NCBI GenBank assembly: GCA_964016885.1
Contig: OZ024741.1
Location: 92,442,001 to 92,506,000, forward strand
From: Eledone cirrhosa
Lineage: Eukaryota
Length of the DNA: 64,000 nucleotides
Direction: 5' to 3'
A program made the translations under genes and the position numbers. This document shows positions 7,504-62,265 of the stretch, piece after piece. A model generated the notes under the pieces. It worked only from the letters and a program-made list of their open reading frames with translations. It ran no database searches and was not told the DNA's origin. Position 1 is the first letter of the stretch. Each line of letters opens with the position of its first letter.

Positions 7504-8888
7504 TTGCAAGGTTTTTGATATGAAATCGTGTGTCGAAACAAATATTGTTATACTTGGGGAGGGTCATATTGTTGTAATAATATTGTTGTACTTGAGGAGG
7601 GTCATTTTGTTGTAATAATATTGCCAGAAATAATAACAGAACACACTCACTGTTTAGTTGGTTTTCGCTTCTGTATCTTTTATATCTCCATAGTTAATTT
7701 ATTTGGCAATCAACGTTTATCATTGAATGACCAACGGTTAAAAATACAGATATAAATAAATATATATATATAGTCTATCAAAGTTCTTTCGTTGCACATC
7801 TGCAACATCATCAGTGGTACTATTATTATGTTCCCTCCTATTGTATTGTAATGTCTCCGCCATTTTAATTTTACTTATTTATTTATTTATTTCTTCTTGT
7901 CTCCGTCTCTGCGCATGCGTTTGCGTGTGTGTATAATGTTTGGTGTGTGTGTTTGCGTTTGAGTATGTGTTTTGGTTTTTGTATTCTATATTTGTTTACT
8001 AGTGTGTGTTTATATGTGTTTCTTGTTATTATTTCTGGCAATAGTGTCGGACGCCATGCTTTGTAGCATAGAGTTACGGCTCTTTATGATCTGAGTTCAA
8101 ATCCCGCCGAGGCTAACTTTGCCTTTCATCCTTATGGGGTCGATAAAATAAAGTACCAGTCACGCACTGGGATCGATTTAATCGACTTTCCCCTCCCCCC
8201 AAATTACTGGCTTTGTGCCTATATAAGAAACCATTATTTCTGGCAATATTATCACAATATGATCCTTCCCAAGCATAAAAATTAAATATATCTTTGATAG
8301 TCATAATAAAGTTTTAAGGTAGAATTTAAAGTTAAGATTAAAAATGTAAAATTTAAGTTTAAAATTGAAAGATTTAATTAAAGAATTGGGAGAAGGAAGC
8401 AATTATGTAAAAATTAAATATATGTTTGATAGTCGCGTTCCATCACTGTGTGTTTGTGATGTGGAGAAATGGCTTGTCTTTCGTTAGATACTGGAATAAT
8501 GGCTTCACAGTCACCGCAGGTTCATAAACCGGCAAACAATTCCGAGTAAAATCTCATATCGGGAATAAGGAAATTTCTATTATTTCCAAGCACTCCAGGA
8601 AACGCTCACAGGTTCCTGTCCTACGTGACCAGACGAGTCAGACAGTTATGTTAATGATTCTAAAGATAGAGTAGTGTAAAGCTGGGACGTAAAAAACAAA
8701 ACAAAATTAAATTAAATTAAACTAGATTAGATCATTATCTAGCTTTGGGGTCTTTGCATTGATCGATATTATATTCCTAGGGGTGTGAAATAATTCTGAA
8801 CTACATTATATAAAAGAGTGCGATTTGGCGGTCAATAACCAGTGACGTGACGATCTCCCGGTCTACCCAAGGTTCAAGGGCCTACCAA

Positions 8889-9177: not shown

Positions 9178-9605
9178 CTTGCCTGTAAAATCTGACCAGT
9201 GATTCTTTCCTGAGGCATTCTAACCACATGCCCATAGTATCGGAGAAGTAGCATCTGTACCTGGAGTGAATGTCTGATCTCTGTGCTATGCACTTTATCG
9301 AGTAACGTTACTCCAAAGATCCTTTGGATGAACCCCATTTCGGCCGCTTGTATTTGCAGTCGTATTCTTTTCGTCATTACCCTAGATTCATGACCCTAGG
9401 TAAGGATTGGTAGGAATACCAGGAAGACAGTGAGTTTCGCTTTTACATCTACTGATTACTGATTACTGATGCTGAAGCTGGCGCATTACTGCATCAGCTC
9501 CTGCAATTATTGCACTTAATTCAGCCTCCTGCCTTCCATCACTCATGAACGTGGCCCCAAGATACTTGAACTTCTCTACCTGCTTCAATGGAATTCCATT
9601 CACAT
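9178..9605 (-). mobile_element. RTE LINE fragment, same family as 3330-5206
   Basis: Minus-strand ORFs read LKQVEKFKYLGATFMSDG and MTKRIRLQIQAAEMGF..RYYGHVVRM. Confidence 0.85.
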
Positions 9606-9779
9606 GTATATAAATTTGAGGGACTTCTGTCCATCCGTCCATCACACAATGTGTGTGTGTGTGTAAAAGGAAGGAATGGGATACACACATATATATGTCT
9701 CTAACTTAAAAACGGTGACATACACACGTCTCTAATTTAAGAACGCCGGCAAACTCACGCCCCAGCACCTACACATACT

Positions 9780-19912: not shown

Positions 19913-22900
19913 CTAGCAAAAAACCACCCGGTGGGCAGTTTTCTGCTAGCAAATCTAGTGTATATACTGATATTGTTGAGATTTGGATGAGAAATGTTTT
20001 CGGCACATGTTCACCGTCTCTCGGTGTGTCTTTTATGCATGTATAAATATATATGTTATCTATATGGTGAAATCTTTGAAATAAATATATGTTAAAACGA
20101 AAAAGGAGAAAAAGAGATTAGTGACGGAAATATAAACGTTATGATACATAAACGTTATGATATAACGATGGAAATATATCTTCAAATGGTCCTTGGCATG
20201 ATGTCAAGTCAGAACCGCCTCGAACTGGTTACTTCTGGCTTGTGCAAGGTGTCTCTATAGCAACCAGCGATTCTCTCGGCCTCAGTGACCAAAGTCTGTG
20301 GAGAGGGGAAGGTAATGTTTCTATAGCGACAGTGTTTCTCTTGGTAGTACCAAAGTGGAGAAAGGAAGGGGAAGGTAATATTTCTGTAGCACCTACATTT
20401 GAGTTTTAGGGAAGGACAGACAGACAGACAGACAAACAGAGAAATGCCCATATATTTCTGTGTGTGTATATATATATATATATTACACACACAGAAATGT
20501 ATATATATTTCTGTGTGTGTATATATATATATATATATTACACACACAGAAATGTATATATATTTCTTAGAACAAAATTATTATTAATGTTTTGCTGTTC
20601 ATAACAATTGGAATTGAAAAATTACTTTTGAAATTATTAGTTATTTTACTAATGCTTAGATATGTAAAAATGAAGCAATGTTTCTAATAATTGTTTCTAC
20701 TTTTGGCACAAGGCCAGCAATTACCCAGTACATTACTGGTACTTTATTTTATCGACCCCGTGAGGATGAAAGGCAAAGTTAACCTCGGCGGTATTTGAAC
20801 TCAGACCGTAAAGGGACGTAACTCCATGCTATGAAGCATGGTGTCCGACTCTCTACAGATTCTGCCAATCCACCGCCCTAATGTCTGTACGTAATGAGGG
20901 AGTGAGAGGGGAGAGAAAGAAAGGCAGAGGTGAAGTGATGAAGTGATTCTCTCCTCCTCCTCCCCCATCTCCCCATTCGTCACAGCGATAGAGGGGAGGA
21001 ATGTTAGTGTGTTACAAAGAGAAAGAGTGAGAGTGAGAGAAACAGACAGACTAAAAGAGAGGGATAGCTGGAGAGAGAGATAGATAGCAACCACGCGCGC
21101 ACGTGTTTCCACTGTCGGACAGACAGACAGAGAAATTGCTGGTTATATATTATAAGGAGACTAGCAGAAAACCACCCGATTGGGCGGTTTTCTGCTAGTC
21201 TATATATCTAAAACAGAGAATGTCTGTCTGTCTGTCAGCTCACTAAAACTTGAGAACCATCCAACCGATTGTTTTCAAACTTTAGACATCTAATACTTAT
21301 GGACCTGTGTGTGTTTTGAGCAAAAAATTATTTCAAATTTTCAATGCCCTAGGGACCGCATTAGGCGATTTAGCGTTCTCTCTATATAATTCTTAGTCTT
21401 TCTTTTTAGATAGATACATAGATATAACGTTGCGCCCTTATAATATTTGTCTGTATGTCTGGCTGTCTGCATTACGTCATTATGACGCGCTCAGTGTGTG
21501 TGTGTATATATATATGTATCGTAATGCAGACAGCAAGACATAGCTTTCCTTCCCCTCTTCCAGCGTCTCTCTCTCTCCCTCCCGCTATCCCCCTCTTGTA
21601 GTCTGTCTCTTTCACTCTCACTCTCTCTCTCTGCGCGTCGGACAGACAGACAGAGAAATTGCTGGTTATATATTATAAGGAGATATATATATACATACAC
21701 GGCGAAATTCGAGTACCAGTCGACTAAGATATATAAAACGCTATCATTTCTTCAGCATGCTGACACGTATGTGTATATGTGTGTGCGTGTGAGTATGTGC
21801 ATATATATACATTTATATGTATGAGTATATAAATATAAACACGCAAACAGATACACTTACAAAAATACACACTCACAGACATACATTCACACAAACACAC
21901 ACATACATTCACACAAACACACATATACATTCACACAATCACACATACATTCACATAAACACTCATACATACATTCACGCAGGCAACATACGTAAAGAGA
22001 GAGGAGTAGTATGAGGTAGTCAAACTACTCCTCTCTCTTTACGTGTTGTCACAGATATTTATATATAGATAAATATGACTCTGTTCCGGGCATGTAATCA
22101 CCCCATCAATAAATATTTTATTTTTACACCTATAAATCTACAATCTAAATTGAATCCCACCCATACGCATGAAATTACATTGTCTAGAGGTGGCTGATGA
22201 GGAAGTTGGATGTGTTTGTTCTTTCGTCCCGTGTTCGGTTTTTATGGGGGGGGGGGTTTCTGCTAGCATGTGTAGTGTGCATATTGATATTAGCTTCGCC
22301 ATCACCCGAGGTAACACTGCGAGTGTGCTGGCTTGCCTCAAAAATCATTAGAGAGGTTGCCCAGTACTCATCGCTGCTGTCTTTTGCTCTGGTTTTGGCT
22401 CGGTTGTTCACCCCTTCCTTTACATTTTCTTTAATATTACAACATTAAAGGAATATATCCTTCTGACAGAATCGCGAGCAATTTATAATGTTATCTAAGC
22501 ATTTGTAATATTATTTATGTATATATTTAAAACATATTTGTTATGTTATTCTACTGTAAATTTATTTATATGCTTTGTAAATATCATATGTGTTCATATT
22601 TTCACTCACATTTGTAACGTTATTTAATAAAATTAAAATATATATACATCAAATAAAATGGTAATTGACAATATACACCGAAATTGAACGAAGACTGTGT
22701 TACACTGTCTTATGTAATCAGTAACGGAATCCATGATACATTAAAAAAAGACGATATTATATATAAACTGCATTAGGAGAAAATTAGTGACGGAAATATA
22801 TGAATGTTTATTTAAGCGATCGCTAACCGGAAGTGTTGACATTTGAAAATGTTAAAGAAGTGAATCTTTAGATAAACAATAAAATATATTTAATCAACAG

Positions 22901-23488
22901 CTACAAAATTTAGTAGATAAATTATGTAATATTCATTCATTATTTATTCAAAGTAAAGTACCAGTAATACACTGGGTAATTGCTGGCCTTGTGCCAAAAG
23001 TAGAAACAATTATTTATTCAAAGGGCGGTGGATTGGCAGTATCGGTAGAGAGTCGGACACCATGCTTTGAAGCATAGAGTTACGTCCCTTTATGATCTGA
23101 GTTCAAATCCCGCCGAGGTTAACTTTGCCTTTCATCCTTACGGGGTCGATAAAATAAAGTACCAGTAATGTACTGGGTAATTGCTGGCCTTGTGCCTAAA
23201 ATAGAAACAATTATTTATTCAAAGTAATCCAACTTATTTTACTAACTGGATTAAAAGAAATAAACCGTACGCAGTCCCGCACTCCTTACTTTATTATAGT
23301 TTAGATACTGTAACGCTACGTGCCCTCCTCTTTGATTAGCAATTGTGTTTACTCGCGTGACAAATCCTTCTCTCCTTGTTTCTCTTTTCCCGTTTGCTCT
23401 GGATAATTGTAAAATGATTATGTATACAGTTTATTCGACTCATCTCTCACCGTGTTGACCAGATATCATCATCTATATCATGACAACA

Positions 23489-32712: not shown

Positions 32713-34196
32713 ACATATCAACGACCGGCTTCCACCCAGTTACCGTCAATCAAATTTCCCTCACAAGGTATTGATCAACCTGAGGCTATAGAAGTAATTG
32801 CTTCGGGTGCCACTCAGTGGGACTGAACCCGAAACCACGTTGTTTCGAAGCGAATTCCTTAACCACACAGCCATACCTGCGCCTTTTATAAACTATTATA
32901 TACATCGAGGATTGGCAGTATCGGTAGAGGGTCGGACGCCATGTTTGCAGCATAGAGTTACGGCCCTTTATGGTCTGAGTTCTAATCCCGCCGAGGTTAA
33001 CTTTGCCTTTCATCCTTACGGGGTCGATAAAATAAAGTAAAGTACCAGTAATGCACTGGGATAATTTCTGGCCTTGTGCCAAACGTAGAAACAATTATAT
33101 ATATACCAGAATAACAGTACAGCTTGGATGAAATTTACGTTTACCGACATTGTAAATAATTATTTCAATAATTACATAGAAGTTATAGTCTTGCTGCCCT
33201 GCTTTTTCTTCGTAGTGGAGTTGAATTACAAATTTTAGTTGAATTTCATCTCATCTTTCCATTTATGAGAAATGGATTGGAAAAGAAAACAGGTGCAGGC
33301 TGGAGCTGTGTGCTTAAAGAATTGGCTTCACAACCTCGTAATTTAGATTTCACTCCCGTCTCTACTATAGCCTCGGATTGAGCAATGCCTTGAGAGTGAA
33401 ATTTGATATAGACGGAAACTGCAAAGGCTTCTGATATATATATACGATCAGCGACTTTTAGACACACCAGACTAAAGAAACAATTGTTAATACTGTAAAT
33501 AAACCCTATTGTACAGCCGACCATGTTATACTTCATTCTTTTACTATATAGATATAGATGTGTGTGTGTGTGTGTGTGTGCGTGTGTGTGTGTGTGTGTG
33601 TGCACGTGTGTGTGTGCACGTATGTTTGTGCGCGCGTGTGTATACGCGTGTGTGTCAGTTTATGTAAACTAGCGCTTCGACAAAAAGAGATTGATAAAAT
33701 AAATACCCAACTTGAGAAACAAGTACTGGAGTGATATGGTCGACTTAATCTCTTTAGGCTGCACTTTATGAGTTTATGACTGGAAGCAGTAAGAAAAATA
33801 ATAATTTTTCTTGTGTTAACTTTAGATGCAGTAATTTCAGATTTATTTTATATTGCATTGAGGTCAAGCTTCGTATGAATTCAATTGAACTCGGCAGGAT
33901 TTTAACTCAGAGAGGAGTGTAGTTTCAAATCTCACTGCCGACGTGCAAGAGGTTTTACATTTTTTCTTTTTTTTTAACTAGTTTGACTCATAAGACTTCA
34001 GTACTTTTTCATCGACTTTTATTTTTATTTCACAAACTGCTAAGTTACAGAGCATAAAGAACCAACAATGGCAAACGTGTAATTACACACACATAGCATA
34101 CACACACACATACATACATACATACATACATACATACATACATACATACATACATACATACATACATACATACATACATACATACATACATACATA

Positions 34197-37100
34197 ATAC
34201 AATGGCGACCGTTGTGGTCAGTGTCCGATAATCGGACGTGTGTAATTACGGCTTACATGAAGGCAACATACCATATATTGGAAAACGTTGAGCTACATTA
34301 CGCGGTAAAATTACATACAATAATTCTACAAGTGTTTGAACTGTAAGTGTGTTGTAAAACACCTATTTATATGAACGATACATACACTTATGATATATGA
34401 ACGATACATACACTTTAACATATAAATGCAACGTTGTTATATTACATTTATAAAGAAATATGCAAGTAACTTTTTCGATTCAGAAACAAAAACATAAGTG
34501 TTTGAACTGTGAATATGTTGTGAATAAGTTGTAGAACACCTATTTATATGAATGATACATAAACTTTAACATATAAATACAGCGTTGTTATATTATATTA
34601 CATTCATAAAGGAATATACTAAGTAACGATTCTTTTTGTTCTCGATTCACGTTTCAAGAACAACGTTTAAAATACAGTTGTAGAATTAAAAACTAACTGA
34701 AAAGAAATATTACCCAAGCTGTGAATAACATTAAATTTGATTCTGACAGAACTTTGTCGAAACTTTTAAAGAAGATCATCGACTATTTTGAAAAATAAAT
34801 ACCAAATATTAGTGAATAGACGAACTCATCATGGCAAAACGTACAAGTCTCCTTCGACCACTTCGCAACTACAACCGTTGTATACAGTGGAGCTACGAGC
34901 TTAACAAAGAATTATATGAAGCATACAAACAATCTGAACCCCAAAAGTTCGGTTTTATGCAAAGGCTAAAAACTTTATGGAACTCCAAACACCCAGAATT
35001 AGACTTTTCTCCAAAGCATTTAAATGAACAGGCAAAACGTATCATTGATACATCTAACGGAATTGAGTGATACTACAAATACAGCCCTTGTAGACAACCA
35101 CCCCACCTCCACTGACAGACAAAGAGAATGGCAAGCTAAATCTAACAGTGAACAGCTCACCAACAATTTTGCTGAAATCCATCCCACTTCCACTGAAGAA
35201 CAGCGAGAATGGTCAGCTAACTCTAGTAGTAATTGTCACCACATCAACAACGAGGCTGAAATTCATGACTCTACTGTACAAACAGAACACCAAAAACTTG
35301 TGGACATCTTACAAGTGATATAGAACGATATGTTTCAAGAGATACACAGCCTTAATGTGAGTGACAGACCATACAACACCAGAATCAGTAAAGAACCCAC
35401 TAAATTGGAATTGGAAGCGGTGAACGAAATAGCTGGCAATTATATGAAGGCTATACGATCTAAAGGTGTAGAAACGACATTTGAAACGCTTAATATTTTA
35501 TTATATGTTTCAGCTGTCACATTGCTATCATATAACACACATCTAAAACCAAGCAATCAAGATACAAACAAAAATCCTGAACCAGCGTGGATGCGAAATT
35601 TAAAAAGCAAAATTTTGTCCCTGAGACGAAGTATCTCAGACATCGCAGTCGTTATGAAATGCAACATAGAGAGCTACTTCACACGACACCAGGAAGACCT
35701 ACAAAAAAAAGTTAGAGAGACGATTTGGAGATACATAATTTAAAACTATGAACTCCAAATTACACCAGTTGAAACAACAACTCACAGCTACAACAGAAAG
35801 ACTAAAATATAAGTCAACAGCACATAAACGACAAGTGCTAAATAGATTGTTTGCCAGAGATCCTAAATCAGTTTATCGCAGCTTCGGTGGCAAAAGCTCA
35901 ATCCCTGTAAATGACACCCCTTCAAAAGAACAGGTTGAGAGCTACTGGAGATCTGTATGGGAAACGGATGACGGATTCAACAGACAAACTAATTGGCTAA
36001 AAGAACTGGAACAGGACTACTGCCAACATATCCAGACAAAACTATATGACATAGATGGGTCAATACTGGAAACAGCTCTACAGAAAATGTCGAATAGGAA
36101 ATCACCAGGCCCAGACCTCATTACAGGATACTGGTTGAAGAATTTCACTTTCTATCGGCAAGATCTCATACAGCTGTTTACTGAAACCATTAAAGGCACA
36201 CAAGAACTGCCCAGATGGTTATCAACTGCCACTACTCTCCTCATTCCCAAAAATAGCCAAACCACCCTTGCTAAAAATTACCGCCCAATAGCCTGCAAAA
36301 ACATCATGTATAAATTATATACTGGGTGCCTTAACCTGTTCTTACAGGATCACTGTGCTACCAACAACATCATAACACATGAGCAAGCTGGTGGAAAGAG
36401 GGAGGTGTAGGGATGCATAGATCACCTACTAACTAATAAAATGATTCAAGAAAAAACAACAAAGAATCGCAGAAACATGACTGTGGTGTGGCTGGACTAT
36501 CAAAAAGCATTTGATAGTGTACCTCATGGGTGGATTGTTAAGGCTTTACAGTTAGCCAAAGTCCCACAACCACTGGTAGCTGCTGTTGAACGTCTGACCA
36601 AGAACTGGTACACCAATTTGATCCTTAGAGGTGAGAAGGAGCAAGTTAAGACTGATAGGATACATTACTAGAATGGCATCTTTCAGGGTGATAGCTTGTC
36701 AGTGCTACTCTTCGTTCTCTCACTAAATCCACTATATTACCTACTCAGGAAACAAAGTGGACAAAGAAGTGGGTCCAGAAGTATCTCCCATCTTTCTTTG
36801 TTGATGACCTGAAGTTGTATGGGCCAAATATCAATGACATCAAGAAACAATTGGACCTCATTACATAATTTTCAACAGACATCAAAATGAAATTTGGTGA
36901 GTCCAAGTGTGCATATTTGGCAGTAAAACGTGGAAGAGCTGTGTCCTCCTCTAGAAATCTAGAGATGAACGGCCTGACAATACAACCTCTACAGTCAGGT
37001 GACAACTACAGATATCTTGTACAGGATGAGAATGTCAGATATGATGGACCCATAAATAAGAAGATAACCAGAACTGAATACCTCAGAAGAGTAAAGAAAA

Positions 37101-38412
37101 TACGGTTATCAGAACTGTCAGCGTACAACAAATACATTACCCACAATACTTATGCTGTGCCAATTCTAACGTCAACATTTGGCCAGCTGAACTGGTCATT
37201 GCAAAAACTAAGTGAGATGGATGTTAGAACTCGCGAACTTCTCAGTGTTACTGGGAACTGTAACATCAATGGTGATGTCGATAGGCTATACTTCTCATGC
37301 AAGGAAGTTGGCCGGGGTCTAAAATCCATATTAACATCATATGAGACCCGGATAGTAACACTGAAGCAACACCTTCAACAGAGGAAAAAGGTTGGCAACC
37401 ATCTTGCCCAGGTTTATGAGCATGAAAAAAATATATCATTAGAATAGCCACTGATCTGAAGGAGAGATATGGAATAAAGCCTGATATAAATCTCTCACCC
37501 AGAGAAATCGGAAGATCCTATTCAATGTTCAAACAAGATGAAAAAATTGACCAATTTACAGAAAAAGTTGTGCATGGATACTTGAGACGTAAAACACAGA
37601 CCATAGAGGGGATAAACCACTCAAAAAGCCTGGCATGAGGTTCCGACAAGTTTATGACATCACACCTTGAGGGATATCTCTATGCAATACAGGAACAAGA
37701 ACTCCCTACCAAATATCTGCTGCACAAAAGGGGAGGGCCATCACCTGACAATAAATGTAGGCTATGTAAAACAAAGATCGAGGATGTAAGCCACATTGTT
37801 GCCAGCTGCGAAAGAATGTCATCTCGCTACTACCTCCCCATGAGACACGGTGGGATAGCTAGAACCATCTGGAACGCACTTCGGAAAACAAAATTAACAA
37901 CAAACGAGGAAGAATATATTGAGACAGATGGCACTAAGGAATACTGGTGGAACCTGAAAATAAAAACTGCCACCATATTAAAGCACAACCGGCCTGATAT
38001 TGTTGTTTGGGACCACACATTGGAAACGTGTTCTGTTGTGGAGATCAGCTGCCCACTTGATGTAAACGTTGTCAGAAAAATACAGGAGGAGGAGGAGGAC
38101 ATCTACGGACCATTGATGAGGAGTTTGCAAATCCAGTATCCAAGATACACCTTTAGCTTCATACTCATCATTATTGGAGCTACGGGTTATATACCAACCC
38201 GTTTGGACCAAGGTATGACTGAACTTGGATTTGCGGGAAAAGAGCGCAGCTCCCTAATTCATAGTCTATAAATGGCTGCGATAGCTGGCACCTTCAAAAT
38301 TTGCAAAACATTCTTGCGATTCAAAGGATGACAATTTCTTTTCTTTTACAACCTTGCCACCAGGAAGGTGGCCGGTCAAAAAAATATACTCAAAATTAAG
38401 AGAAAGAGATAA
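34197..38412 (+). mobile_element. R4/Dong-clade non-LTR retrotransposon, family A, near full length but decayed, inserted in (CATA)n
   Basis: N-terminal WSYELNKELY..GFMQRLKTLW. RT motifs KSPGPD, NYRPIAC, WLDYQKAFDSVPH, GIFQGDSLS and FFVDDLKLY. CCHC CRLC..H..C and RLE HNRPDIVVWD..VEISCP. (CATA)n tracts at 34109-34196 and 38413-38486. Confidence 0.92.
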
Positions 38413-38486
38413 CATACATACATACATACATACATACATACATACATACATACATACATACATACATACATACATACATACATACA

Positions 38487-40007
38487 GGGAATACAACACC
38501 CGATTAAGAAACATGGTCATCGGAACTCTCTGCGCAAAACAAAACAGTGGCTCACAATGTGTTTGCTGTGCCTGTCCTAACACCAACGTTTGGAGAATAC
38601 TCAATTGGACGATAGACGAAATCCGAGCAGTTGATGTTGGAACTCGAAAAATACTGAACAACACCGGAAACTTCCACATCGACAGTGACATAGACCGCCT
38701 TTACTTGAAACGTAAGCAGGGAGGCAGAGGCCTAACATCAGTCCAGACAACATTTGAATGTCGCATCATATCTCTCCGACAACATCTACGAACCTCGAAG
38801 CGTAGGAGCCCGTTTCTCGAGCAAGTCTATCTGCATGAAACAGATAAGATCATGAGAGCTGGGAAGGAACTCCTCGAGAGATATTCCCTGTGTGATAATC
38901 AAAAACTCACACCCAGGGATGTCGCTCAGCAGTATCGCAGTGAATCCATGGATGAAAAACTGCATGCTTATCAGCAAAAAATCATGCATGGATATGTTGC
39001 CAGGAAGCTCCAGAGTGAGAGCAATATAGATAAGGAAAGTAGTCTATCTTGGACCAACAACCGCTATATTGGCTCCCACTTTGAAGGATACGCTTTTGCA
39101 ATCCAGGAACAGGAGATTAACACGAAATACCTGATTCACAAAAGAGATAGGGATGCAGGCAAAACACCTAGATGTGATAACAAGTGCAAACTCTGCAGAA
39201 CTAACATCGAGGATATCACCCATGTCATCAGCAGCTGTCCAAAGATGTCATCGCGGTACTATCTACCTATGAGGCATGATGTAGTGGCCAAAACACTGTA
39301 CAATGCAGTTCGTAAAAAAGATAGCCCCGATAATAAAGACATTAAAAGCTACAGCAATGTGGAAGACATCCATGTACATAATATGAAAGAGTACTGGTGG
39401 AATGTTCCAGTAAAAACTCTAATGAAATGCAAGCATAACAGACCAGATATTATGATATGGGACAGGGAGAAGAAAGCATGCACAGTAGTAGAAATTAGCT
39501 GCCCAGCAGATGCCAATATAATATCAAAGATTAGTGAAAAGGAGAATATTTATGCAGAACTGATGAGAAATCTGCAGATACTCCACCCTGATTACATCTT
39601 CAGATTTATGCTTGTGATTATTGGCGCACTGGGATATGTTAGTAACTGCCTCAATACAAATCTTGAGAAGCTGGGCTTCACAGGAACAGAAAGAACACAA
39701 CTAGTTAGGAAATTACAAGTACAATCCATTAATGGAACAGTAAAAATATGTAAAACATTACAAAGATTTTGCATCTAATAACTGCATATACACATGTACA
39801 GATGCAAAGCATATATACATGCACGCATACAACTCAAAACATCCACATCCACACATACAATAACATCCATATCTACACATGCATGCATGCATACATACAT
39901 ATCTACCTAGTTGATGTGTAAATTCCAATGAGAGAGTCTTGTGTCTATGTTAGAAACCGACTCTCTCTCTATTGGTAAAACTTTGTGAAATTATAAAACC
40001 AGAAGAG
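38487..40007 (+). mobile_element. R4/Dong-clade element, family B, 5'-truncated copy 1
   Basis: Open C-terminal ORF (DIDRLYLKRKQGGRGL, CKLC..H..C, HNRPDIMIWD..VEISCP). The 3' end AAAACCAGAAGAG abuts (CATA)n. Confidence 0.92.
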
Positions 40008-40061
40008 CATACATACATACATACATACATACATACATACATACATACATACATACATACA

Positions 40062-40378
40062 TACAAGCACAATCCATTAATGGAACAGTAAAAATATGTA
40101 AAACATTCAAAAAATGTTGCATCTAATAACTGCATATACACATGTACAGATACTAAGCATATACACATGCACACATACAACTCAAAAGATCCACATCCAC
40201 ACATACAATAACATCCATATCTACACATGCATGCATGCAGACATTCATGCATGCAGACATGCATACATATCTACCTAGTTGATGTTTTGTAAATTCCAAT
40301 GAGAGAGTATTGTGTCTATGTTAGAAATCGACTCTCTCTCTAATGGCAAAAATTTGTGAAATTATAAAACCAGAAGAA
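40062..40378 (+). mobile_element. R4/Dong-clade element, family B, severely 5'-truncated copy 2 (ORF end + 3' UTR)
   Basis: Near-identical to 39713-40007 and 45651-46011. (CATA)n on both sides. Confidence 0.9.
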
Positions 40379-40429
40379 CATACATACATACATACATACA
40401 TACATACATACATACATACATACATACAT

Positions 40430-41053
40430 GATGGCTGCCCCCTCGTTATCGAGTATGGCCATTGCACGATATACCATTATTAATAATTATCAATTAATTC
40501 TATCGGGCAATGCCTGTGCGTGAAGATATTTTTTAAAGTGAGGAAAGACTGTGCACTGAGCCAATCCCACTCTCTGAGCGAAAGTAGCTATAACCAGAAA
40601 AGAAGAAAAGAACAACATCATAATAACTACTGATCCGCAGGTTTTATATCGGAGTTATCCCAGTTTCCTGAGTTGCCTTCTCCTAGAAGAATGCCCTACC
40701 AAAGACTAGGAGTCCTTCACTCCCAGTGGTTTAACCGCGCGATCGGGTGTCCAGCCCGACTATTTCTATGTCCCCGCGCATATACATACACATGCACCCA
40801 TGTATATACGCATATATATATACATACACATGTACATGTGTATATACATATTTACACACTTTTGGCTGGCCGTTGACTCTTATCAGTTCTTCCGCCCTTT
40901 ATCAGGTTTTGTTTTTTGTCCTGCAGGGTGTCCCAAATCACCCTCCTCACCAAGTGAACTTGGTGGGGGTGCCTGTTTAGTCGCCGACGACCCGACCATG
41001 CGACAGGTTGTACTGGGTTACATGTTACCAGTACCACTCAAGAGTGACCCGAC
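40430..41053 (-). mobile_element. Short non-autonomous retroelement, probably RTE-derived, copy A in (CATA)n
   Basis: Shares both termini with copies B and C. The minus strand has a CTAGGAGAAGG(C/A)AACTC motif resembling RTE 5' UTRs. No ORF. Confidence 0.7.
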
Positions 41054-41130
41054 ATAACATACATACATACATACATACATACATACATACATACATACAT
41101 ACATACATACATACATACATACATACAAAC

Positions 41131-41705
41131 ATGGTGGCTGCCAACTCGTTTTCGAGTACGGCCACTACTTTATATCCATGTAGGAGAACCCCTACCGATG
41201 CGCTAAACAAGTGTGACTTTTTAGTCCAGCCAGCGACTTGAAAACTCTGGTACAAACACTACACTTGTGACAGTTATTGACACATAGTGCTGGGCCCATG
41301 GTACCATGTGACGACAAGTGCAGAGAGATCTCCAGATATAAAGCAATGCCTGTGCCGTGAAGCTTTTATAGTGAGTAAAGGCACTGCACAAAGCCAGTCC
41401 CACTCTCTTAACCAAGATGATATTTACCAAAAAAGAAGAACAAGTCAACATCATTGGATACCATCAGGGTTGCAGGTGTTATATCAGAGTTTTCCTTCTC
41501 CTAGAATTCTGCCTTGACAAAGGCTAAGGGGTCATCTCTCCCGGTGAATTTGGATGGCCATTGACTCTTAAGAGCTCCTTTGCCTTTTGACAGGTTTTGT
41601 TTTTAGTCCTGCAGGATGTCCAAAGTCACGCTCCTCACCAAGAAACCTTGGTGGGGTTGCCAGTTTAGTCGCCAACGACCCGACCATGAGACAGGTTGTA
41701 CTGGG
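41131..41705 (-). mobile_element. Short non-autonomous retroelement, copy B in (CATA)n
   Basis: Same ends as copy A, lacking about 35 terminal nt. Minus strand contains CTAGGAGAAGGAAAACTCTGATATAA. Confidence 0.7.
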
Positions 41706-41730
41706 ATACATACATACATACATACATACA

Positions 41731-41764
<34 letters not shown>

Positions 41765-41851
41765 CATACATACATACATACATACATACATACATACATA
41801 CATACATACATACATACATACATACATACATACATACATACATACATTCAT

Positions 41852-42382
41852 GATGGCTGCAAATTTTGCTAAGAATATTGCAATCGCTTGTCAAATTATA
41901 GAGTTTGGTGCACTTTTAGGCTATGGCCAGTCACACGAACCTGTAACAGATCCTGAACAAGCAATGCCTGTGCTCTGAAGGTTTTTTTAAGTGGTGAAAG
42001 GCCTTGCACTCGACCAATCCCCTTCTCTGAGTATCGAAAACACTACCCGAAAAGGAGAACTGGTCAATATCATCAGATGCTTCCGAAGCCGCAGGTTTTT
42101 TTCTTTCTTTTTTCAGAGTGTTTCCCTCTCCTAGAAAGGTGTTGTGACAACTGGGGGCCATTCACTCCCAGGTGAAAAAAAAATACTATTTGGATGGCCG
42201 TTGATTCTGCTGAGTTCCTCCGCCCTTTGCCGAGTCTTGAATTTCATTCCTAAGGGTGCCCAAATATCACCCTCCTCACCAAACAAGCTTGGTCGGGATG
42301 CCGGTTTAGTCGCCGACGACCCGACCATAAGACAGGTTGTACTGGGTTACATGTTACCAGTAGCACTAGAGAGCGACCTGAC
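41852..42382 (-). mobile_element. Short non-autonomous retroelement, copy C in (CATA)n
   Basis: ATGGCTGC start and GTTTAGTCGCCGACGACCCGACCAT..GACCTGAC end, as in copy A. Confidence 0.7.
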
Positions 42383-42396
42383 ATACATACATACAT

Positions 42397-45300
42397 GTCA
42401 GTCAACGCGATCAGTCGCACATATTGGCGTGGGAGACTTCATTAAATTTAAGATGAATACTACCTCCGACAGTAATGCCACAACTACCAGTCATGTTGAA
42501 TAACTGGATATTCTTCTAACTATATCCACCGAAGACACTTTTTATTCGAATTCGTAGGGATATCCGACTAAATACATAATTCATTTTACAAGGATTTGCT
42601 ACAAACAGCATGGCCGAACACAATATCAAGAAAAACAGTTTATCGAACACAAGGAGCGTAAACAATTTACCGAAGAAAACCAGTGAGAAAATCAATGAGA
42701 AAGGTAAACAAAATTTATTCAATTGTAGCTACAAAAGAAACCGAAATTATAAATCGCATTTCTCTTGGAGTTGCCAACTTAATGATGATTTATTTAATTG
42801 TTATAAAATGTCGAAAAAAATCTCTCCGTTGGCTATATGAACAGAATGAAACTACACTGGGACGAAATACATCCAGAGCTAAATCATTTCACGGCGAAAC
42901 AATGACGCCAATAAGTGACGTTTGTTGAACGTAAAAATAAGATAAATATTAGTAATTGTAAGTCCCCCAGAACAAAGATGGAATCAACAACATGTGTTAC
43001 AGGTCGCCATGCTACTAGACTTCCGAGCAGCCAGGTCGAACAGTGCCTTGAAACAACTATGCCTGTAAGAAATTTGACACCACGTGTACCATCCGAATCT
43101 ACCTCGGCTGTTGTGGAAACACTATCAATAATAATTGAATAATAAAATAGAAACGATGTTTGGTAACAATAGAACCAGAACTCTTCAATTGAAAGCTGTC
43201 AGCAAGAAACGTCGATACCAGAAGGTAGATGAAAGAAAAGTGCTTAATAAAAGATTCAGACGAAACCAAACATCAGTCTATAGAGATATGAAGGGCAAAA
43301 TAATAAGTGTCACTGAGGCTCCATCCCAGAAAGACATAGATTCCTTTTGGAGAAAAATATGGGGTGAAAAGAAGAATTTCAACCAAGATGTAGTGTGGCT
43401 AAAAGAAAATAACACTACAACAAAAACATGAAATAAGTGAGGATACCCTTGATAAGAAAACACCAGGAAGAGACATAATTGTCGGCTACTGGTACAAAAA
43501 ACTGATATTCTATCGGGTGTATCTTATCGACCTCTACCAACAAGTTCTCAAGGGAGATACACTTATACCAGAATGGTTGAAATTAACACAAACAATATTG
43601 GTCCCCATGAACAAAGACACCCACTTGGCAAAAAACTACCGACCCATTGCATGCCAGAACCTGATGTATAAGATGTATACAGCTTGTCTGAAGCTATTTC
43701 TTCAAGATCACTATGAAAATAATAACATCATCACAGATGAACAAACAGCTGGAAAGAAAGGTATTTGGGGTGTGTTGAACAACTCCTAATCAACAAAACT
43801 TAGAAGGATATGGCTACAGTCTGGCTGGACTACAGGAAAGCTTTTGATTCTGTTCCCCACTCTTGGATGATAGAGGCCTTCCGGCTTGCTAAAGTCCCAG
43901 ACATTATTATCAGAGCCTTAGGGAAGCTGTCTTCTTCTTGGGCTACTATCCTAAAGTTAAAATCAGAGAAGGAGGACTCAATTTTTACTAATAAAATAGA
44001 ATATTACAGGGGTATATTTCAAGGACACGGTCTCTCTGTGATATTATTTATCCTGTCATTAAACCCCTTGTACTTTCTGCTCAAGAAATGTGAAGGATAC
44101 ATCATTGGCTCATAGGAGAACAGAAATACGAACTTAACCCATAATTTCTTTGTGGATGATCTGAAACTCTATGCCAAGAACATAGATGGGATGAAGAAAA
44201 ATCTTGACCTGGCTACAACATTCAAAGATATAGGAATGTAGTTTGGCCAAGATAAATGTTCATATATGACTGTAAAGCGGGGAAAAACAACAACCCAATC
44301 TAGCAACATTTTCATCAATTGCCTAACTGCTTCACCGATATCTGATGAGGACTGCTACAGATATCTGGGGATAGATGAGAACATATCCTATAATGATATT
44401 TGTAATAAGGAATTCGTAACCAGGGAATATTACACCCGATTAAGAAACATATGGTCATCGGAACTCTCTGCGCACAATAAAACAGTGGCTTACAATATCT
44501 TTGCTGTGCCTGTCCTAACACCAACGTTTGGAATACTCAATTGGACGATAGACGAAATCCAAGCAATTGATGTTGGAACTCGAAAAATACTAAACAACAC
44601 TGGAAACTTCCACATCAACAGTGACATAGACCGCCTCTACTTGAAACGTAAGCAGGGAGGCAGAGGCCTAACATCAGTCCAAACAGCATTTGAATGTCGC
44701 ATCATATCCCTCCGACAACATTTACGAACCTCGAAGCGTAGGAGCCCGTCTATTGAGCAAGTCTATCTACATGAGACAGATAAGATCATGAGAGTTGGCA
44801 AGGAACTCATTGAACGATTTTCCCTGCGTGATAATCAAAAACTCACACCCAGGGAAGTTGCCCAGCAGTATCGCAGTGAATCTATGGATAAAAAAAGGCA
44901 TGCTTATCAGCAAAAAATCATGCATGGATATGTTACTAGGAAACTCCAGAGTGATTGTAATAGAGATAAACAAAGTAGTCTATCTTGAATCAACAACCGC
45001 TATATTTTCTCCCGCTTTGAAGGATACGTTTTTGCAATCCAAGAACAGGAAATCAACACGAAATACCTGATTCACAAAAGAGACAGTGATGCAGCGAAAA
45101 TACCTAGATGTGACAACAAGTGCAGACTCTACAGAATTAACATCGAAGATGTCACCCATGTCATAAGCAGATGTCCAAAGATGTCATCGCGGTACTATCT
45201 ACCTATGAGGCATGATGTAGTGGCCAAAACACTGTACACTGCAATCCGTAGAAAGGATATCCCCGATAATAAAAACATTAAAAGCTACAGCAATGTGGAA

Positions 45301-45899
45301 GACATACATATACATAATATGAAAGAGTACTGGTGGAATATTCCAGTCAAAACCCCCAATAAAACGCAAACATAGCAGACCAGATATAATGATATGGGAC
45401 AGGGAAAAGAAGGCATGCACAGTAGTGGAAGTTAGCTGCCCAGCAGATGCCAATATAATATTATAGATTAGCGAAAAGGAGAATATCTATGCAGAACTGA
45501 TGAGAAATCTGCAGATATTCCACCCTGATTACACCTTCAGATGTATGCCTGTGATTATTGGGGCACTGGGATATGTTAGTAACTGTCTCAATACACATCT
45601 TGAGAGGCTAGGCTTCACAGGAACAGAAAGAACACAACTAGTTAGGAAATTACAAGAACAATCCATTAATGGAACTGTAAAAATATGTAAAACATTCCAA
45701 ACATTCTGCATCTAATAACTGCATATACACTTGTACAGATACAAAGCATATGCACACGTACAACTCAAAACATCCAAATCCACACATACAATAACATCCA
45801 TACCTGCACACAGATGCATGCATGCAGATATGCATACATATCTACCTAGTTGATGTTGTTTAAATTCCAATGAGAGAGTCTTGTATCTATATTAGAAAG

Positions 45900-45976
<77 letters not shown>

Positions 45977-46011
45977 TGGCAAACATTTGTGAAATTATAA
46001 AACCAGAAGAA
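42397..46011 (+). mobile_element. R4/Dong-clade element, family B, long decayed copy 3 with internal deletions
   Basis: N-terminal WSCQLNDDLFNCYKMS, NYRPIAC, WLDYRKAFDSVPH, GIFQGHGLS, FFVDDLKLY, GGRGL and RLE. (CATA)n at 42382-42396 and 46012-46020. Confidence 0.92.
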
Positions 46012-47509
46012 CATACATACACACACAACGGTCTTCCGACCTGTTTGCACCCATTTTCCCTCACAAGGTATTCTTTTTATTTCACTGTTTCTTTTTTATT
46101 GACTTGTTCCTTTTGAAAATAATTGTTTCTTCTTTTGGCACAAGGCTAGCACAATTATCTCAGTGTATTACTGGTACTTTATTTTATCGACTCCGTAAGG
46201 ATGAAAGGTAAAGTTAACCTCGGCGGGATTTTAACTTTGCCTTTCATCCTTTTGAAAATAATATTCAACATTAAAATATGTTTATATACAATAAAATTTT
46301 ATCCTAAAATAACTAGCCGAAGAAACTTCCCAATAGGGGTCCAACAATGAACATTAAAAACCAATCTAAATTCCTGAAACTAAAACGTTCGCCAAAATGT
46401 TATAACAGTTTATTAAAAGTCTTTTATTTTGTTCCATAGTTAAGCTGGTTAATAATTGTTTCTACTTCTGGCACCAAGCCAGCAATTCACCAGTGCATTA
46501 CTGGTACTTTATTTTATCGACCCCGTAAGGATGAAAGGCAAAGTCAACCTTAATAATGATAGGTTGTCCTTCGGTTTCCACGATGAGTATTCAGTCGTTC
46601 AATCAACTGAACATCTGACGCGTGAATTAACGTGTAAGTAGTTGAGTTTTTCACAGACACGTGTATCATAAACGTAATTTGTATGCAAAAATCATCATGG
46701 CACGATACATGTGACAATGTTTGATCTCGTGATTCCGAAACAAACCTCTTAAATACCCAACCAGCTGGTTATTAGTGTAACACAGGGACACACATCTTGA
46801 CGAGTAAAGTAATATGATAGTCGTTTCTAGCTGTTGAGGTATCTAATGGTCGTAGGTTCGATTCCCACTGCAGACGAATGAATTTTTTGACGGGAATTCA
46901 CAGTACTTTATTTAATAAGAATTCGTAATAATTTATTTCTTTGATGTAAATTGTGTACATTGTGTACACACCAAATTTAACGTGTTCGTGTTTGAATATA
47001 CCAAAGACAATCAATTACTCTTGTTTCCGTGATTGGTGTAGCCAGTCGTACGGGTGCCACACTAAGCGCTTTTGTAGTCAGCCATCCCCACAGCCTTCCG
47101 TTCTCCATCATGCATAGAAGGGTCTCAGTGTTGTGACCAATATAGTCATTGATATTGTTGGACCAGAATTTTCTGTGGCTTCCTCTCCTTGACCCTCCCT
47201 CAACTCGTGCCTTGAAGGGTGGTATTAGTCAAGGATTTGTGGCGGGATACATGACCATACCAGGCAAGCTTCCATCTTTTCACCATCGCAAGGAGTGGTT
47301 CCTATATGTTGGCATTTGTTAATTGGCTGCTTGACAAATTTGTGTTTTGTGGTCCGTGTAGCAGCACATGGGACTTAATTAATAAGCAGAATCATCGTGG
47401 CACACTATATGTGATTATATTGTACCTGTAAATTTCAGATTCAATGCAACTTATAGACTTCAACCCAGTTTCCGTCTACCCATTTTCACTCAAAAATATC
47501 CGATTATTT

Positions 47510-48575
47510 TTTATCCCTCGTGAACACGTCCCCGAGATACGCGAACTTCTCCTCCTACTTCAGTGGAACTCCACTCACATGTAGAGGGCACTGCACAGCT
47601 TACTTTGTGAAGACGAGTGTCTCAGTCTTCACAGCACTGCTTTTCATTCCAGTCGTGCAGCACTTGGCATCCAGCCGATCCAATGCATGTCGGAGGTCTC
47701 TTCTGATGAGTTAAGTAGTACCATGTCGTCCGCAAATTCCAACTAACTGACCTTACACCTGCCAGTCTCGATTCAACTTCCAACCCCGCTGCGCATTTCA
47801 ATCCTGCTCATGAGATAATGAACAAGAGAGATGAGAGTACACAACTTTGGCGGAGTCCGACACAGCACCATTTACCCGAACACAAATACTATAGCATTCA
47901 TATAGAAACACCAGGGCAACAAGAAGCTGTCCATCGATCCCATACTTCTGCAGAACCTTCCACAGCAGATCCCATAGAAAGAAGTCGTATCACTTTTCGT
48001 GGTCCACAAAGCAAGCATCCAACTCTTGGTTGTACTCACAAGATTTCTCAAAGACTTGCCGCACTGTGAATATTTGGTCGGAGCAATCTTTCTTGTTTTC
48101 CTTTTTAAAAATCGCGATTATCATTCCCGATTACCATTGCTTATGTGCCTTTCCAGAGATCCAGGTCACATGAGTCAACCAGAAAATACCTTCGCTATTT
48201 AAAACTCTTAATATCTCAGGCTGGATTTCATGTTCTCCAGCGACCTTGTCATATTTGACCTCAGCCTCCGAGAAATAAGTCACCGCTCTCAGATGCACCT
48301 GAAATAAGTCACTGCTCTCAGAAGATGCTGTTGTTATCGTGTTTAGGAGATCAGCAAAGTATTCTCTCCCCACTCGCGACGATCCACCTCTCTGAAGAGT
48401 GTAGTACCCCAGACGCGTTACTGATAGCAGGTATAAGGGAGGACTTCTTACTACGAAGTCGACGGATGGTCTACCAGAACACTTTATTGCTTGATCTGAA
48501 GTCGGATGAAGACATAGAAGGACTTTGGGGTTAAGCTGGAATCCGACTTCAGATCAAGAAATAAAGCGTATTTTT
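47510..48575 (-). mobile_element. Degenerate RTE LINE fragment with a short inverted 5' piece; a different RTE-like 3' end lies at about 47040-47360
   Basis: Minus strand reads SDFRS.NKVFW.TIRRLR, EAEV..KVAGEHEIQPEILRVLNSEGIFWLT and LEFADDMV. Confidence 0.8.
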
Positions 48576-55789: not shown

Positions 55790-57083
55790 GGCGTTATCGG
55801 TAACACTTTGTATCAGCTAGTCTATATTGTTACTGATAAATATTTGCTAATATTTACCATATTACTGTGTGAAGATTTGTATTACAGCATCACATTAATA
55901 ACCAGCTGCTGCACATATATATGGCTGAGTGGTTAAGAGGTTCGTTTCACAATCATATGGTCTCAGGTTTTATCCCACTGTCAGATATATCGAGTGTTTT
56001 TATCATAGCCCCGGCTCTACTTGAGCTAGAAACTAGGATTACTATTGATAGATTTACCAGAATTTCAGAGTCCAAAGTTGTCTCTGATACTGTGTAACGC
56101 TGATACTGCCCGTAAATTACGGTTATGGCGCATGTGTCTTTACAATACTCAACCACATATACGTTAATTCACGAGTCAGACGTTCCTTTGATCGAATGAC
56201 TCAATGCTTGTCATCGAAACCGAAGAAGAACCTATTATTATGAACCAGGGCGGTGGATTGGCAGTATCGGTAGAGGGTCGGACGCTATGCTTTGACGCAT
56301 AGAGTTACGGCCCTTGCTATTCTGAGTTCGAATCCCGCCGAGGTTAACTTTGCCTTTCATCCTTACGGGGTCGATAAAATAAAGTACCAGTAATGCGCTT
56401 GGTAATTGCTGGCTTTGTGTCAAAAAGTAGAAACAATTATTATGAACCAGTTTAAGAGCGGTGGATTGGCAGTATCGGTCAGAGTCGGACACCATGCTTT
56501 GCAACATAGAGTTACGGCCCTTTACAGTCTGAGTTGAAATCCGGCCGAGGTTAACTTTGCCTTTCATCCTTACGGGGTCGATAAAATAAAGTACCAGTCA
56601 TCACTAGGGTCGATTTAATCGACTTTCCCCTCCCCCAAAATTGCTGGCCTCGTGCCGATATAAGAAACCATTATTAACCAGTTTAACTACACAACAAAAC
56701 ATGGTGGTTGATAGGTATGCACCTTAACAACATAACCATGCCTGCGCCTGTATTTACCATATCCTTTAATCGATCGGATATTTTGGGGTGAAATTGGGTA
56801 GACGGAATGTGTGGAAGCTTATTGGATGGATTGTGCCTAAAATTCAAAGGTGCAACATTGTCATGTTTATCGTGCGACGATGATTCCGCGTGTGAATTAG
56901 GTTTAAGATACACGTGTCTGTGGAATATTCAACCACCTATACGTTTATTCACGAGTCAGAAATTCTGTTGATGAACGACATAACGTGAACACTATGAAAA
57001 GATTATGTAGGTAAGATATTTTATATATGTGTGTGCATTTTTATTTAATAAATGATTGTGAATTCTCATTTAAAAAAGGCATA

Positions 57084-57295: not shown

Positions 57296-57760
57296 AATTC
57301 TTCTTCTTCTTCGCCCAGTTATTCCTGAGAGGGTCATGGAGGAAGTCCTCAAACACTCCTTCCAGAGTGTCCTATCAGAAGCAACTGTCTCCAACTGATC
57401 CGACTGGATCCCCAAGCAAGACCAGCCAAGCTCATGGATGTTATCCAACCATCTTGCTCGGGGTCTACCCCTGGGTCTCCTACCTGTTGGTTTTGCCCGT
57501 AAAATCTGTCCAGCAATTCTTTCCTTCGACATTCTAACTACATGCCCATAGTATCAGAGCTGTGATCTCTCAATTCGTAGAAGTAGCGGCTCTGCCTGGA
57601 GTGACTCTCTGATCTCCGAGCTACGCACTCTATCGACTAACGTTTCTCCAAAGACCCTTCGGAGGCACCCCATTTTGGCCGCTTCTATTCGCGAACGTAT
57701 TCTTTCGATCATTACCCAAGATTCATGACCATATGTAAGGGTTGGCACGAATACCGAATT
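57296..57760 (-). mobile_element. RTE LINE 3' end with a short (GAA)n tail
   Basis: PTLTYGHESWVM..IERSQL and GRRPRGRPRARWLDNI. Same family as 4640-5206. Confidence 0.9.
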
Positions 57761-58589
57761 AAATCAATATCTTAAAAGCATTTTTTAAATGTTAGCGAAT
57801 TCTTATAAAATAAATTTATTTGAATTCTTATTTTTTTTAAATGAAGATGATACGCCAGCAAGTGACTTGAACCAGCGCCCATCCGATACCTTTACGAAAT
57901 AATCCGTAGTGTCTGATAGAAGACATGTAATAAACTGTTATAACATTTTCATTGAACGGAGGCAGACGAGACGGTGTTGGTCAAGGAAACACCTGTGGTG
58001 GAAGTGACCTTATTGGCCGCTGCAATAAGTGTGCTGTGTACCCCATAAGAGAGGTGTCTAGGGAGATACTAGATAGATACTCTATGCTGCAAAGCATGTT
58101 GTCCGACGCTCTACCGATACTGCCAATCGACCACCCTTGCATTGGTATTAATAATTGTTTCTACTTTTGGCACAAGGCCAGCAATTATCCCAGTGTACCA
58201 CTGGTACTTTATTTTATCGTCCCCGTAAGGATAAAAGGCAAAGTTAACCACGTGCGGGATTTGAACTCAGACCGTAAAGGACCGTAACTCTATGCAGCAA
58301 AGTATGGTGTCCGACTCTACCGATTCTGCCAATCTACCACCACGTCCGACAAAAAAGGACTGCTAGACTGTGGAAGTGAGCTGTAGGAAGCGTATATAGG
58401 AACAAAAAACATACATATTAGTATACAGATATAAATGCAGGTACACATATGGAGAACATAGGAACAAAAGGAACAAAGATTATACATAAATACAAAAGCA
58501 GGTATATATACGGAGAACAAGGAACAAGGAACAAAGGGATATAAAACATGTTGTAATCATAAAATCCTATACGTGCATAACAGAATGGT

Positions 58590-60656: not shown

Positions 60657-60750
60657 CTTATATATTATGTATACTCCAGTCCTACAAAACTGTAGAATGC
60701 TTCTTATCCGATATCTGCATTGCTTTATTGTACTACAATAAAACTCACCT

Positions 60751-62265
<1,515 letters not shown>

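Follow-up and report, generated by a model that had tools for sequence, protein, structure and literature searches.

A (CATA)n array parted by seven retroelement inserts

We analysed a 64,000-nucleotide stretch of the Eledone cirrhosa genome (assembly GCA_964016885.1, contig OZ024741.1, positions 92,442,001 to 92,506,000 of the forward strand; here termed the window and numbered from its first nucleotide), which harbours a (CATA)n microsatellite occupied by long interspersed nuclear elements (LINEs) of the restriction-like endonuclease (RLE) type and by derivatives of RTE elements. A scan for perfect period-4 runs resolved eight plus-strand (CATA)n tracts at 34108-46021, parting seven inserts (I1-I7). 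The tracts are T1 (34108-34196, 89 bp), T2 (38412-38486, 75 bp), T3 (40008-40065, 58 bp), T4 (40378-40429, 52 bp), T5 (41057-41127, 71 bp), T6 (41706-41847, 142 bp, interrupted once), T7 (42381-42396, 16 bp) and T8 (46011-46021, 11 bp). Both outer tracts, T1 and T8, grade into short (CA)n bordered by non-element flank, and no element precedes T1, which lies upstream of the first insert.

CATA/TATG runs beyond the array reach at most 15 bp in the window, and the seven CATA runs of at least 11 bp amount to 0.16% of the sequence, compared with 5.2% for TA and 1.6% for CA repeats. CATA runs elsewhere being so short and rare, the six long tracts are exceptional; T7 and T8, taken singly, are unremarkable. 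All 14 insert junctions fall in CATA, and none lies within the 11.4 kb of element sequence. A preliminary description of the same stretch had already listed eight tracts, with starts that proved correct within 1-4 bp, and its statements that the outer flanks are (CA)n and that long pure (CATA)n is absent elsewhere in the window both agree with the scan.

Four plus-strand inserts are RLE LINEs of two families

Inserts I1, I2, I3 and I7 are RLE-type LINEs on the plus strand, belonging to two families (A and B) and abutting CATA with their 3' ends, as had been proposed. The family A copy I1 (34197-38411) is near full length and decayed (7 stops, 5 tblastn segments); it comprises a 5' untranslated region (UTR) of ~630 bp, a coding region at ~34831-38325 and a hairpin in the 3' UTR at 38354. 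Family B is represented by I2 (38487-40007), which is 5'-truncated, by I3 (40066-40377), a 312-bp 3' end, and by I7 (42397-46010), which is near full length save for an N-terminal deletion and is likewise decayed (7 stops, 6 tblastn segments). I2 has no stop across 455 aligned residues and a single frameshift near its 5' end, so that decay is unequal among the copies. When compared with full-length relatives by tblastn, I1 and I7 span the protein from N- to C-terminus, I7 minus its N-terminal part, while I2 covers the final 430 residues and carries the CCHC and PD..D/E motifs. At the DNA level families A and B align weakly (65-67% over ~250-bp patches).

CATA flanks all four LINE copies on both sides and in one orientation, the two 5'-truncated copies included. 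These two, I2 and I3, begin directly in CATA and share 2 bp (CA) and 4 bp (TACA), respectively, of microhomology with the tract at the 5' junction. The 3' UTR of family B is itself internally rich in CATA/CATG.

The protein is encoded as one open reading frame (ORF) in which the reverse transcriptase (RT) domain is followed by a CCHC knuckle and a C-terminal PD-(D/E)XK endonuclease, as indicated by RVT_1 and zf-RVT domain matches and by C-x2-C...H...C and RPD...E...K motifs in alignment A2. Its closest full-length relatives are mostly single-ORF proteins of 1,130-1,170 aa with RT, CCHC and a C-terminal PD..D/E motif. An N-terminal apurinic-type endonuclease (APE) domain was sought with Exo_endo_phos, which gave no match in the intact metagenomic relative L005 (see below) or in the clade members, unlike in distant hits. 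The elements therefore show the RT-CCHC-PD-(D/E)XK single ORF, free of an N-terminal APE domain, that characterizes R2-group (RLE) non-LTR retrotransposons. Their best solved relatives are R2 proteins (R2Tg, R2Bm and turtle R2), both by profile (E 3e-47) and by fold; a PDB search using protein P0002 alone gave no hits.

Three local features of these LINEs were recorded in addition. In the 3' UTR of I7 (45903-45974), the GA/TC arm of the hairpin region has grown to (CT)36 from the approximately five units seen in I2 and I3, and is a microsatellite born inside the element. The left flank at 34065-34086 echoes the 5' end of I1 (34199-34249), with an 8-mer and a 10-mer in order and 29 bp lacking between them; 6 of 2,122 background windows equalled its score in this post hoc comparison, and the echo may be a remnant, or a partial duplication, of the 5' terminus of family A. 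Finally, a contig of depth 216 from sequencing run X4 bears three ACAT units at 42714 (joint 42540-42714), which suggests either that the 5' UTR of family B contains an internal ACAT repeat lacking in I7, or that there is a further nested insertion.

Three minus-strand inserts derive from RTE elements

The remaining inserts, I4 (40430-41056), I5 (41128-41705) and I6 (41848-42380), which the preliminary description left unclassified, are non-autonomous RTE derivatives on the minus strand. I4 consists of an RTE 5'-UTR domain joined to a short 3' end that abuts (ATGT)n, and I5, whose 5' end is ~33 bp shorter, retains the remnant of a C2H2 zinc-finger ORF (zf-C2H2 E=0.001, below the curated Pfam cut-off). 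The motif of the RTE 5'-UTR domain is found on the minus strand in all three inserts and matches the supplementary alignments of this domain for OegopSINE, RTE-3_BF and AviRTE in PMC5786205. All three terminate in ...GCAGCCA(T/C)C followed by (ATGT)n. Because of the minus-strand RTE domain and the (ATGT)n ends, we interpret I4-I6 as facing opposite to the LINEs. Local alignments show 79-86% likeness among the three, whose internal structures differ. Around 40776-40860, I4 contains a TA/CA-rich internal insertion of ~125 bp that I5 and I6 do not have.

This architecture, an RTE 5'-UTR domain joined to a short 3' end, resembles bipartite non-autonomous RTE elements and the RTE domain of Ceph-SINEs, although the 3' repeat of I4-I6 is (ATGT)n. 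No autonomous RTE partner was found within the window; the octopus RTE-2_OV is reported with a C2H2 finger (PMC9115989), the type of finger of which I5 keeps a remnant. We also considered whether I4-I6 might be SINE partners of the LINEs on the plus strand and rejected this, since neither family A nor family B has a 3' end in common with them and their RTE domain reads on the minus strand. I5 and family B match over 19 bp (E=0.03), which we attribute to chance.

Loose read ends extending past the 5' terminus of I4-I6 were collected from four sequencing runs. Their consensus is A-rich in X4 (44 contigs, agreement 0.6), non-repeat in X9 (restriction-site-associated DNA reads; agreement 0.73), and TA/CA-like in X1 (43, 0.52) and X2 (6, 0.52); the test is weak, the ends being short and the consensus mixed. 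The RTE-derivative family is not strictly CATA-bound. An Octopus bimaculoides MELT file contains RTE calls exclusively and, with CATA in one row of target site duplications, was uninformative.

Relatives carry CATA or CTTA repeats at their ends

Scanning metagenomes with alignment A3 gave 19 loci; 11 show 44-55% identity, and eight of these were assigned to the clade described below. Loci L012-L019 (23-41% identity) are omitted from the flank count; the only one of them inspected, L016, has no terminal repeat of CATA/CTTA type. Locus L005 is a 4,125-bp contig with one intact ORF of 1,133 aa and (CATA)n at 12-115 and 4011-4122, in the same orientation as in the window. The related repeat (CTTA)n stands at both ends of L003, at the 5' end of L001 and L002, and at the 3' end of L004, L008 and L010, while L007 is an internal fragment. 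CATA or CTTA thus terminates seven of the eight clade loci, at all four 5' ends and all five 3' ends reached. Three loci outside the clade (L006, L009 and L011, L009 being an internal fragment) have no terminal repeat. Both observed targets, CATA and CTTA, fit (TACW)n. We discounted the (AAT)n with which L004 starts as a target flank, as it encodes poly-Asn in an open frame inside the coding region. In L008 the (CTTA)n tail shades at 3825-3901 into (TGAC)n and then (GACG)n. Prokaryote and viral collections yielded neither relatives of the LINEs nor matches to the RTE-derivative pattern.

An IQ-TREE phylogeny (21 rows) unites family A, family B, L005 and the CTTA loci as a clade with support 100/99. 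Within it, family A is sister to the Argonauta hians protein P0091 (100/99) and groups with L005 (100/99), and the placement of family B beside the CTTA loci is weak (83/78). The Argonauta sister protein and the cephalopod-type repeats both point to an octopod host. FastTree (58 rows) recovers the same clade with support 100 and L006, L009 and L011 outside; L010 was omitted from the trees as a near-copy of L008. Both trees hold unnamed relatives rather than labelled R4, Dong or Rex6 references, and the clade is defined among those relatives. The R4 label leans on motifs known for that clade and on reports of R4-Dong elements in cephalopods; membership of the R4 clade is likely.

A conserved 3' hairpin and an N-terminal three-helix domain

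Seven of nine 3' ends (I1, I2, L003, L004, L005, L008 and L010) share a 3'-UTR hairpin with a 6-bp stem and a 5-nt loop, situated 57-71 nt ahead of the repeat; the pattern does not match I3 and I7. In an alignment of six sequences, pairing holds in 35 of 36 cells and five of the six pairs change on both sides, a covariation score reached by none of 500 shuffles. The position of the hairpin and its covariation place the true 3' end of the element at the repeat. A similar 5'-terminal motif was seen by eye in I1, I7, L003 and L005. Rfam returned no ribozyme match, its microRNA and small nucleolar RNA matches all falling below the gathering score and lying mostly on repeats.

For the conserved 80 residues at the N-terminus, modelling gave three helices (pLDDT 77). 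This model matches mostly Myb/SANT/trihelix DNA-binding domains, every Z being below 8, with GT-1 (Z 6.6, rmsd 3.5, 68 aligned), ISWI (6.4) and Sap1 (6.2) as the top VIA-align rows; Pfam and Foldseek gave no match. We regard a Myb-like domain as probable from the modelled fold, and as a lead only. No N-terminal Cys/His finger was seen in alignments A2 and A6, and R4-clade elements are not known to have N-terminal zinc fingers. R2 carries zinc fingers and a Myb domain at its N-terminus, and targets 28S rDNA instead of a microsatellite.

How the nest was built

We consider it quite probable that one compound (CA)n/(CATA)n microsatellite was hit repeatedly, and that a clade of single-ORF RLE LINEs inserts unidirectionally into (TACW)n. 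The observed basis for targeting comprises the repeat on both sides, the fixed orientation, the 5' microhomology, the conserved 3'-UTR hairpin and the domain order. The same repeat in the same orientation flanks independent copies at both ends in all four window LINEs and in L003 and L005. The proposal in the preliminary description that RLE LINEs insert into (CATA)n and leave the repeat on each side is supported by the CATA at both ends of L005, by the CTTA sister families and by the truncated copies that start in CATA.

Specificity could instead reside in the RNA, with a loose endonuclease whose nicks prime only where they pair with a (CAUA)n RNA tail. This variant of targeting, which we hold to be possible but rather doubtful, accounts for the identity of tail and 5' flank within each family (CATA with CATA, CTTA with CTTA) and for the entry of unrelated RTE derivatives into the same tracts, and RTE 3' microsatellites have been proposed to steer site choice or priming (PMC6007223). 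However, R2-type RLE elements choose sites by protein domains (PMC13586686), the clade retains an N-terminal three-helix domain whose modelled fold matches mostly Myb/SANT, and both targets fit TACW rather than just any repeat. If CATA were merely an element-encoded tail, the array would have arisen by template jumping or co-insertion, each 5' tract being the tail of the element upstream. Each internal tract does adjoin the 3' or 5' end of some element, the family B 3' UTR is CATA/CATG-rich, and collapsed contigs such as L005 could derive from tandem arrays; yet no element lies upstream of T1, T5-T7 stand at the 5' ends of minus-strand elements (T5 and T6 also adjoin the 3' end of the following element) in mixed orientation, and T7, sitting between two 5' ends, cannot be the tail of either neighbour. 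With the unequal decay of the copies and the non-family sequence upstream of the repeat in L001 (400 bp without the family hairpin) added, an encoded tail is very improbable as the origin of the array.

Still less credible is a tandem segmental duplication, which the preliminary description had named as one outcome that would overturn its reading, and which is excluded for the whole array because three unrelated element types in two orientations are present. I2 and I7 are 92.1% identical, and the modest likeness and differing internal structures of I4-I6 also speak against it. The case for duplication comes from I3, which repeats the final 312 bp of I2, is sited after I2 and shows the TACA overlap at the junction. 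Over the I3 span (287 columns) private substitutions number 6 in I2, 6 in I3 and 15 in I7; I3 is 94.5% identical to I2 and 91.9% to I7, but has six states in common with I7 that I2 lacks. A local duplication of the I2 end is a credible, if less probable, origin for I3. Hence the count of seven inserts stands and that of seven independent insertions does not: I3 may have inserted independently or may be an old local duplication, so that six insertions form the secure minimum and the safer figure. Passive accumulation, by random insertion into a locus that tolerates or retains elements, fits a repeat-rich window and has a precedent in the accumulation near CA repeats proposed for Drosophila Waldo-A/B (PMC3812793). 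It is as hard to credit as duplication, given that every junction lies in CATA, that six copies of a ~190-bp interspersed family (drawn from self-comparison rather than a census) have no CATA flanks, and that relatives elsewhere repeat the pattern.

Several observations weigh against repeat targeting as we have put it. The flank tally combines window copies and metagenome loci rather than a genome-wide set, and outside the window CATA flanks come from one locus, L005. Metagenome contigs are probably collapsed multi-copy assemblies, in which head-to-tail arrays could mimic repeats at two ends; the CTTA loci share contig-name prefixes and possibly come from one host, L008 and L010 being one family. 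The sequence past the stop, 570 bp in L001 and 846 bp in L002, contains no tail, although their 3' ends were probably not reached, since the 3' UTRs of CTTA relatives measure ~860-1,060 bp. Among the 24 of 8,170 loose-end rows listed there is no family B truncation flank, and the loose ends 5' of the RTE derivatives in the four runs are not uniformly CATA. The shuffle control of the hairpin is not independent because those very sequences served to define the pattern, the Myb-like call relies on Z values of at most 6.6, I3 is nearer to I2 than to I7, as local duplication would have it, and ACAT repeats are already known as a target, that of Waldo. On balance, we regard the building of the nest by repeat-targeted retrotransposition as real.

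A possible insertion mechanism

By analogy with R2 and Dong, the element protein would bind its own RNA at the 3' hairpin, and the N-terminal Myb-like domain together with the RLE may contact the repeat, where the (TATG)n strand would be nicked. The (CAUA)n end of the RNA could then pair with the freed primer, followed by reverse transcription, and the 5' end would be joined through microhomology during second-strand joining. Each insertion would yield a net gain of one tract, with repeat on both sides, and slippage may later lengthen the tracts; as every event would leave repeat on both sides, the number of targets would rise. The RTE derivatives may have entered the same tracts from the opposite strand with looser specificity, probably by pairing of a (UAUG)n tail at a nick in the CATA strand. 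More tentatively, and with doubts of our own, we suggest that an undescribed and widespread RLE subclade on (TACW)n could have switched between CATA and CTTA by one base, its RNA tail and Myb-like reader changing together, and that RTE-derived elements use the regenerated tracts from the opposite strand, so that two endonuclease types would jointly grow a multi-kilobase nest.

Relation to known microsatellite-targeting elements

Microsatellite targets are documented for Dong on TAA, including the snail DongBg, for Waldo on ACAY, Mino on AC, Kibi on TC and Koshi on TTC (PMC3812793), and for the microsatellite-specific HERO families and Togen (PMC4640811). Dong (Bombyx Dong, DongAg, DongBg) resembles the window LINEs in its single ORF with RT and C-terminal RLE and in its insertion into microsatellites (PMC3812793, PMC3636483), DongAg and DongBg being placed in the R2 group (PMC3636483). 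Its target is (TAA)n, however, whereas that of the window clade is (CATA)n/(CTTA)n; the nest acts like Dong but is not Dong by target. Dong also has an HDV-like ribozyme (PMC3774820), of which an unvalidated descriptor, run without a positive control, found no match in any of nine 5' regions of the clade. The ACAY targets of the R1-clade Waldo elements (WaldoAg1, WaldoAg2, WaldoFs1) include (ACAT)n, which equals (CATA)n, but Waldo uses an APE endonuclease and the window elements a C-terminal RLE; since the endonucleases differ, the shared target is convergent. HERO families and the NeSL-related Togen are, like the window LINEs, RLE elements with microsatellite targets. The Togen repeat, (TG)n, differs from CATA, and for HERO, compared by a partial description, overlap with CATA is possible.

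Among molluscs, R4-Dong elements are nearly confined to cephalopods (PMC10294476). Dong-R4 families are reported in Octopus (PMC9115989), and Table 1 of PMC13282606 gives five recently active octopus families with 1,129 insertions; neither source names a target site in the part covered. In the open literature searched, we found no RLE element described as targeting (CATA)n or (CTTA)n; Repbase or Fell et al. 2025, who screened 4,464 assemblies for site-specific families (PMC13586686), may list such elements. Microsatellite targeting itself is known, and what is new here is the (CATA)n/(CTTA)n RLE clade with its opposite-strand RTE passengers.

Other repeats in the window

A separate decayed LINE at 3600-5206 on the plus strand, presumably RTE-like by its end motif, ends in (AGA)41 and is not a partner of I4-I6. 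Partial copies of this AGA-tailed LINE lie near 9179-9608, 47513-48258 and 57298-57763 (minus strand), the copy at 57298 also ending in an AAG repeat. The ~190-bp interspersed family mentioned above has many copies with 85-94% identity, including those at 2299-2484, 8043-8238, 20685-20879, 23022-23216, 32909-33102, 46112-46236, 46450-46550, 56247-56601 and 58079-58341. Interrupted (TA)n units form a long array at 60750-62250.

Implications

How RLE elements switch targets is the question behind R2-based gene insertion, and with the one-base difference between CATA and CTTA, the intact ORF of L005 and the defined 3' hairpin, swaps could tell apart what the RNA tail and the protein contribute. 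As a gene-insertion tool itself the clade is, in our judgement, of limited direct use, because a dispersed microsatellite does not offer one safe site. For cephalopod genomics, the finding predicts where the abundant Dong-R4 copies are located and how microsatellite nests form.

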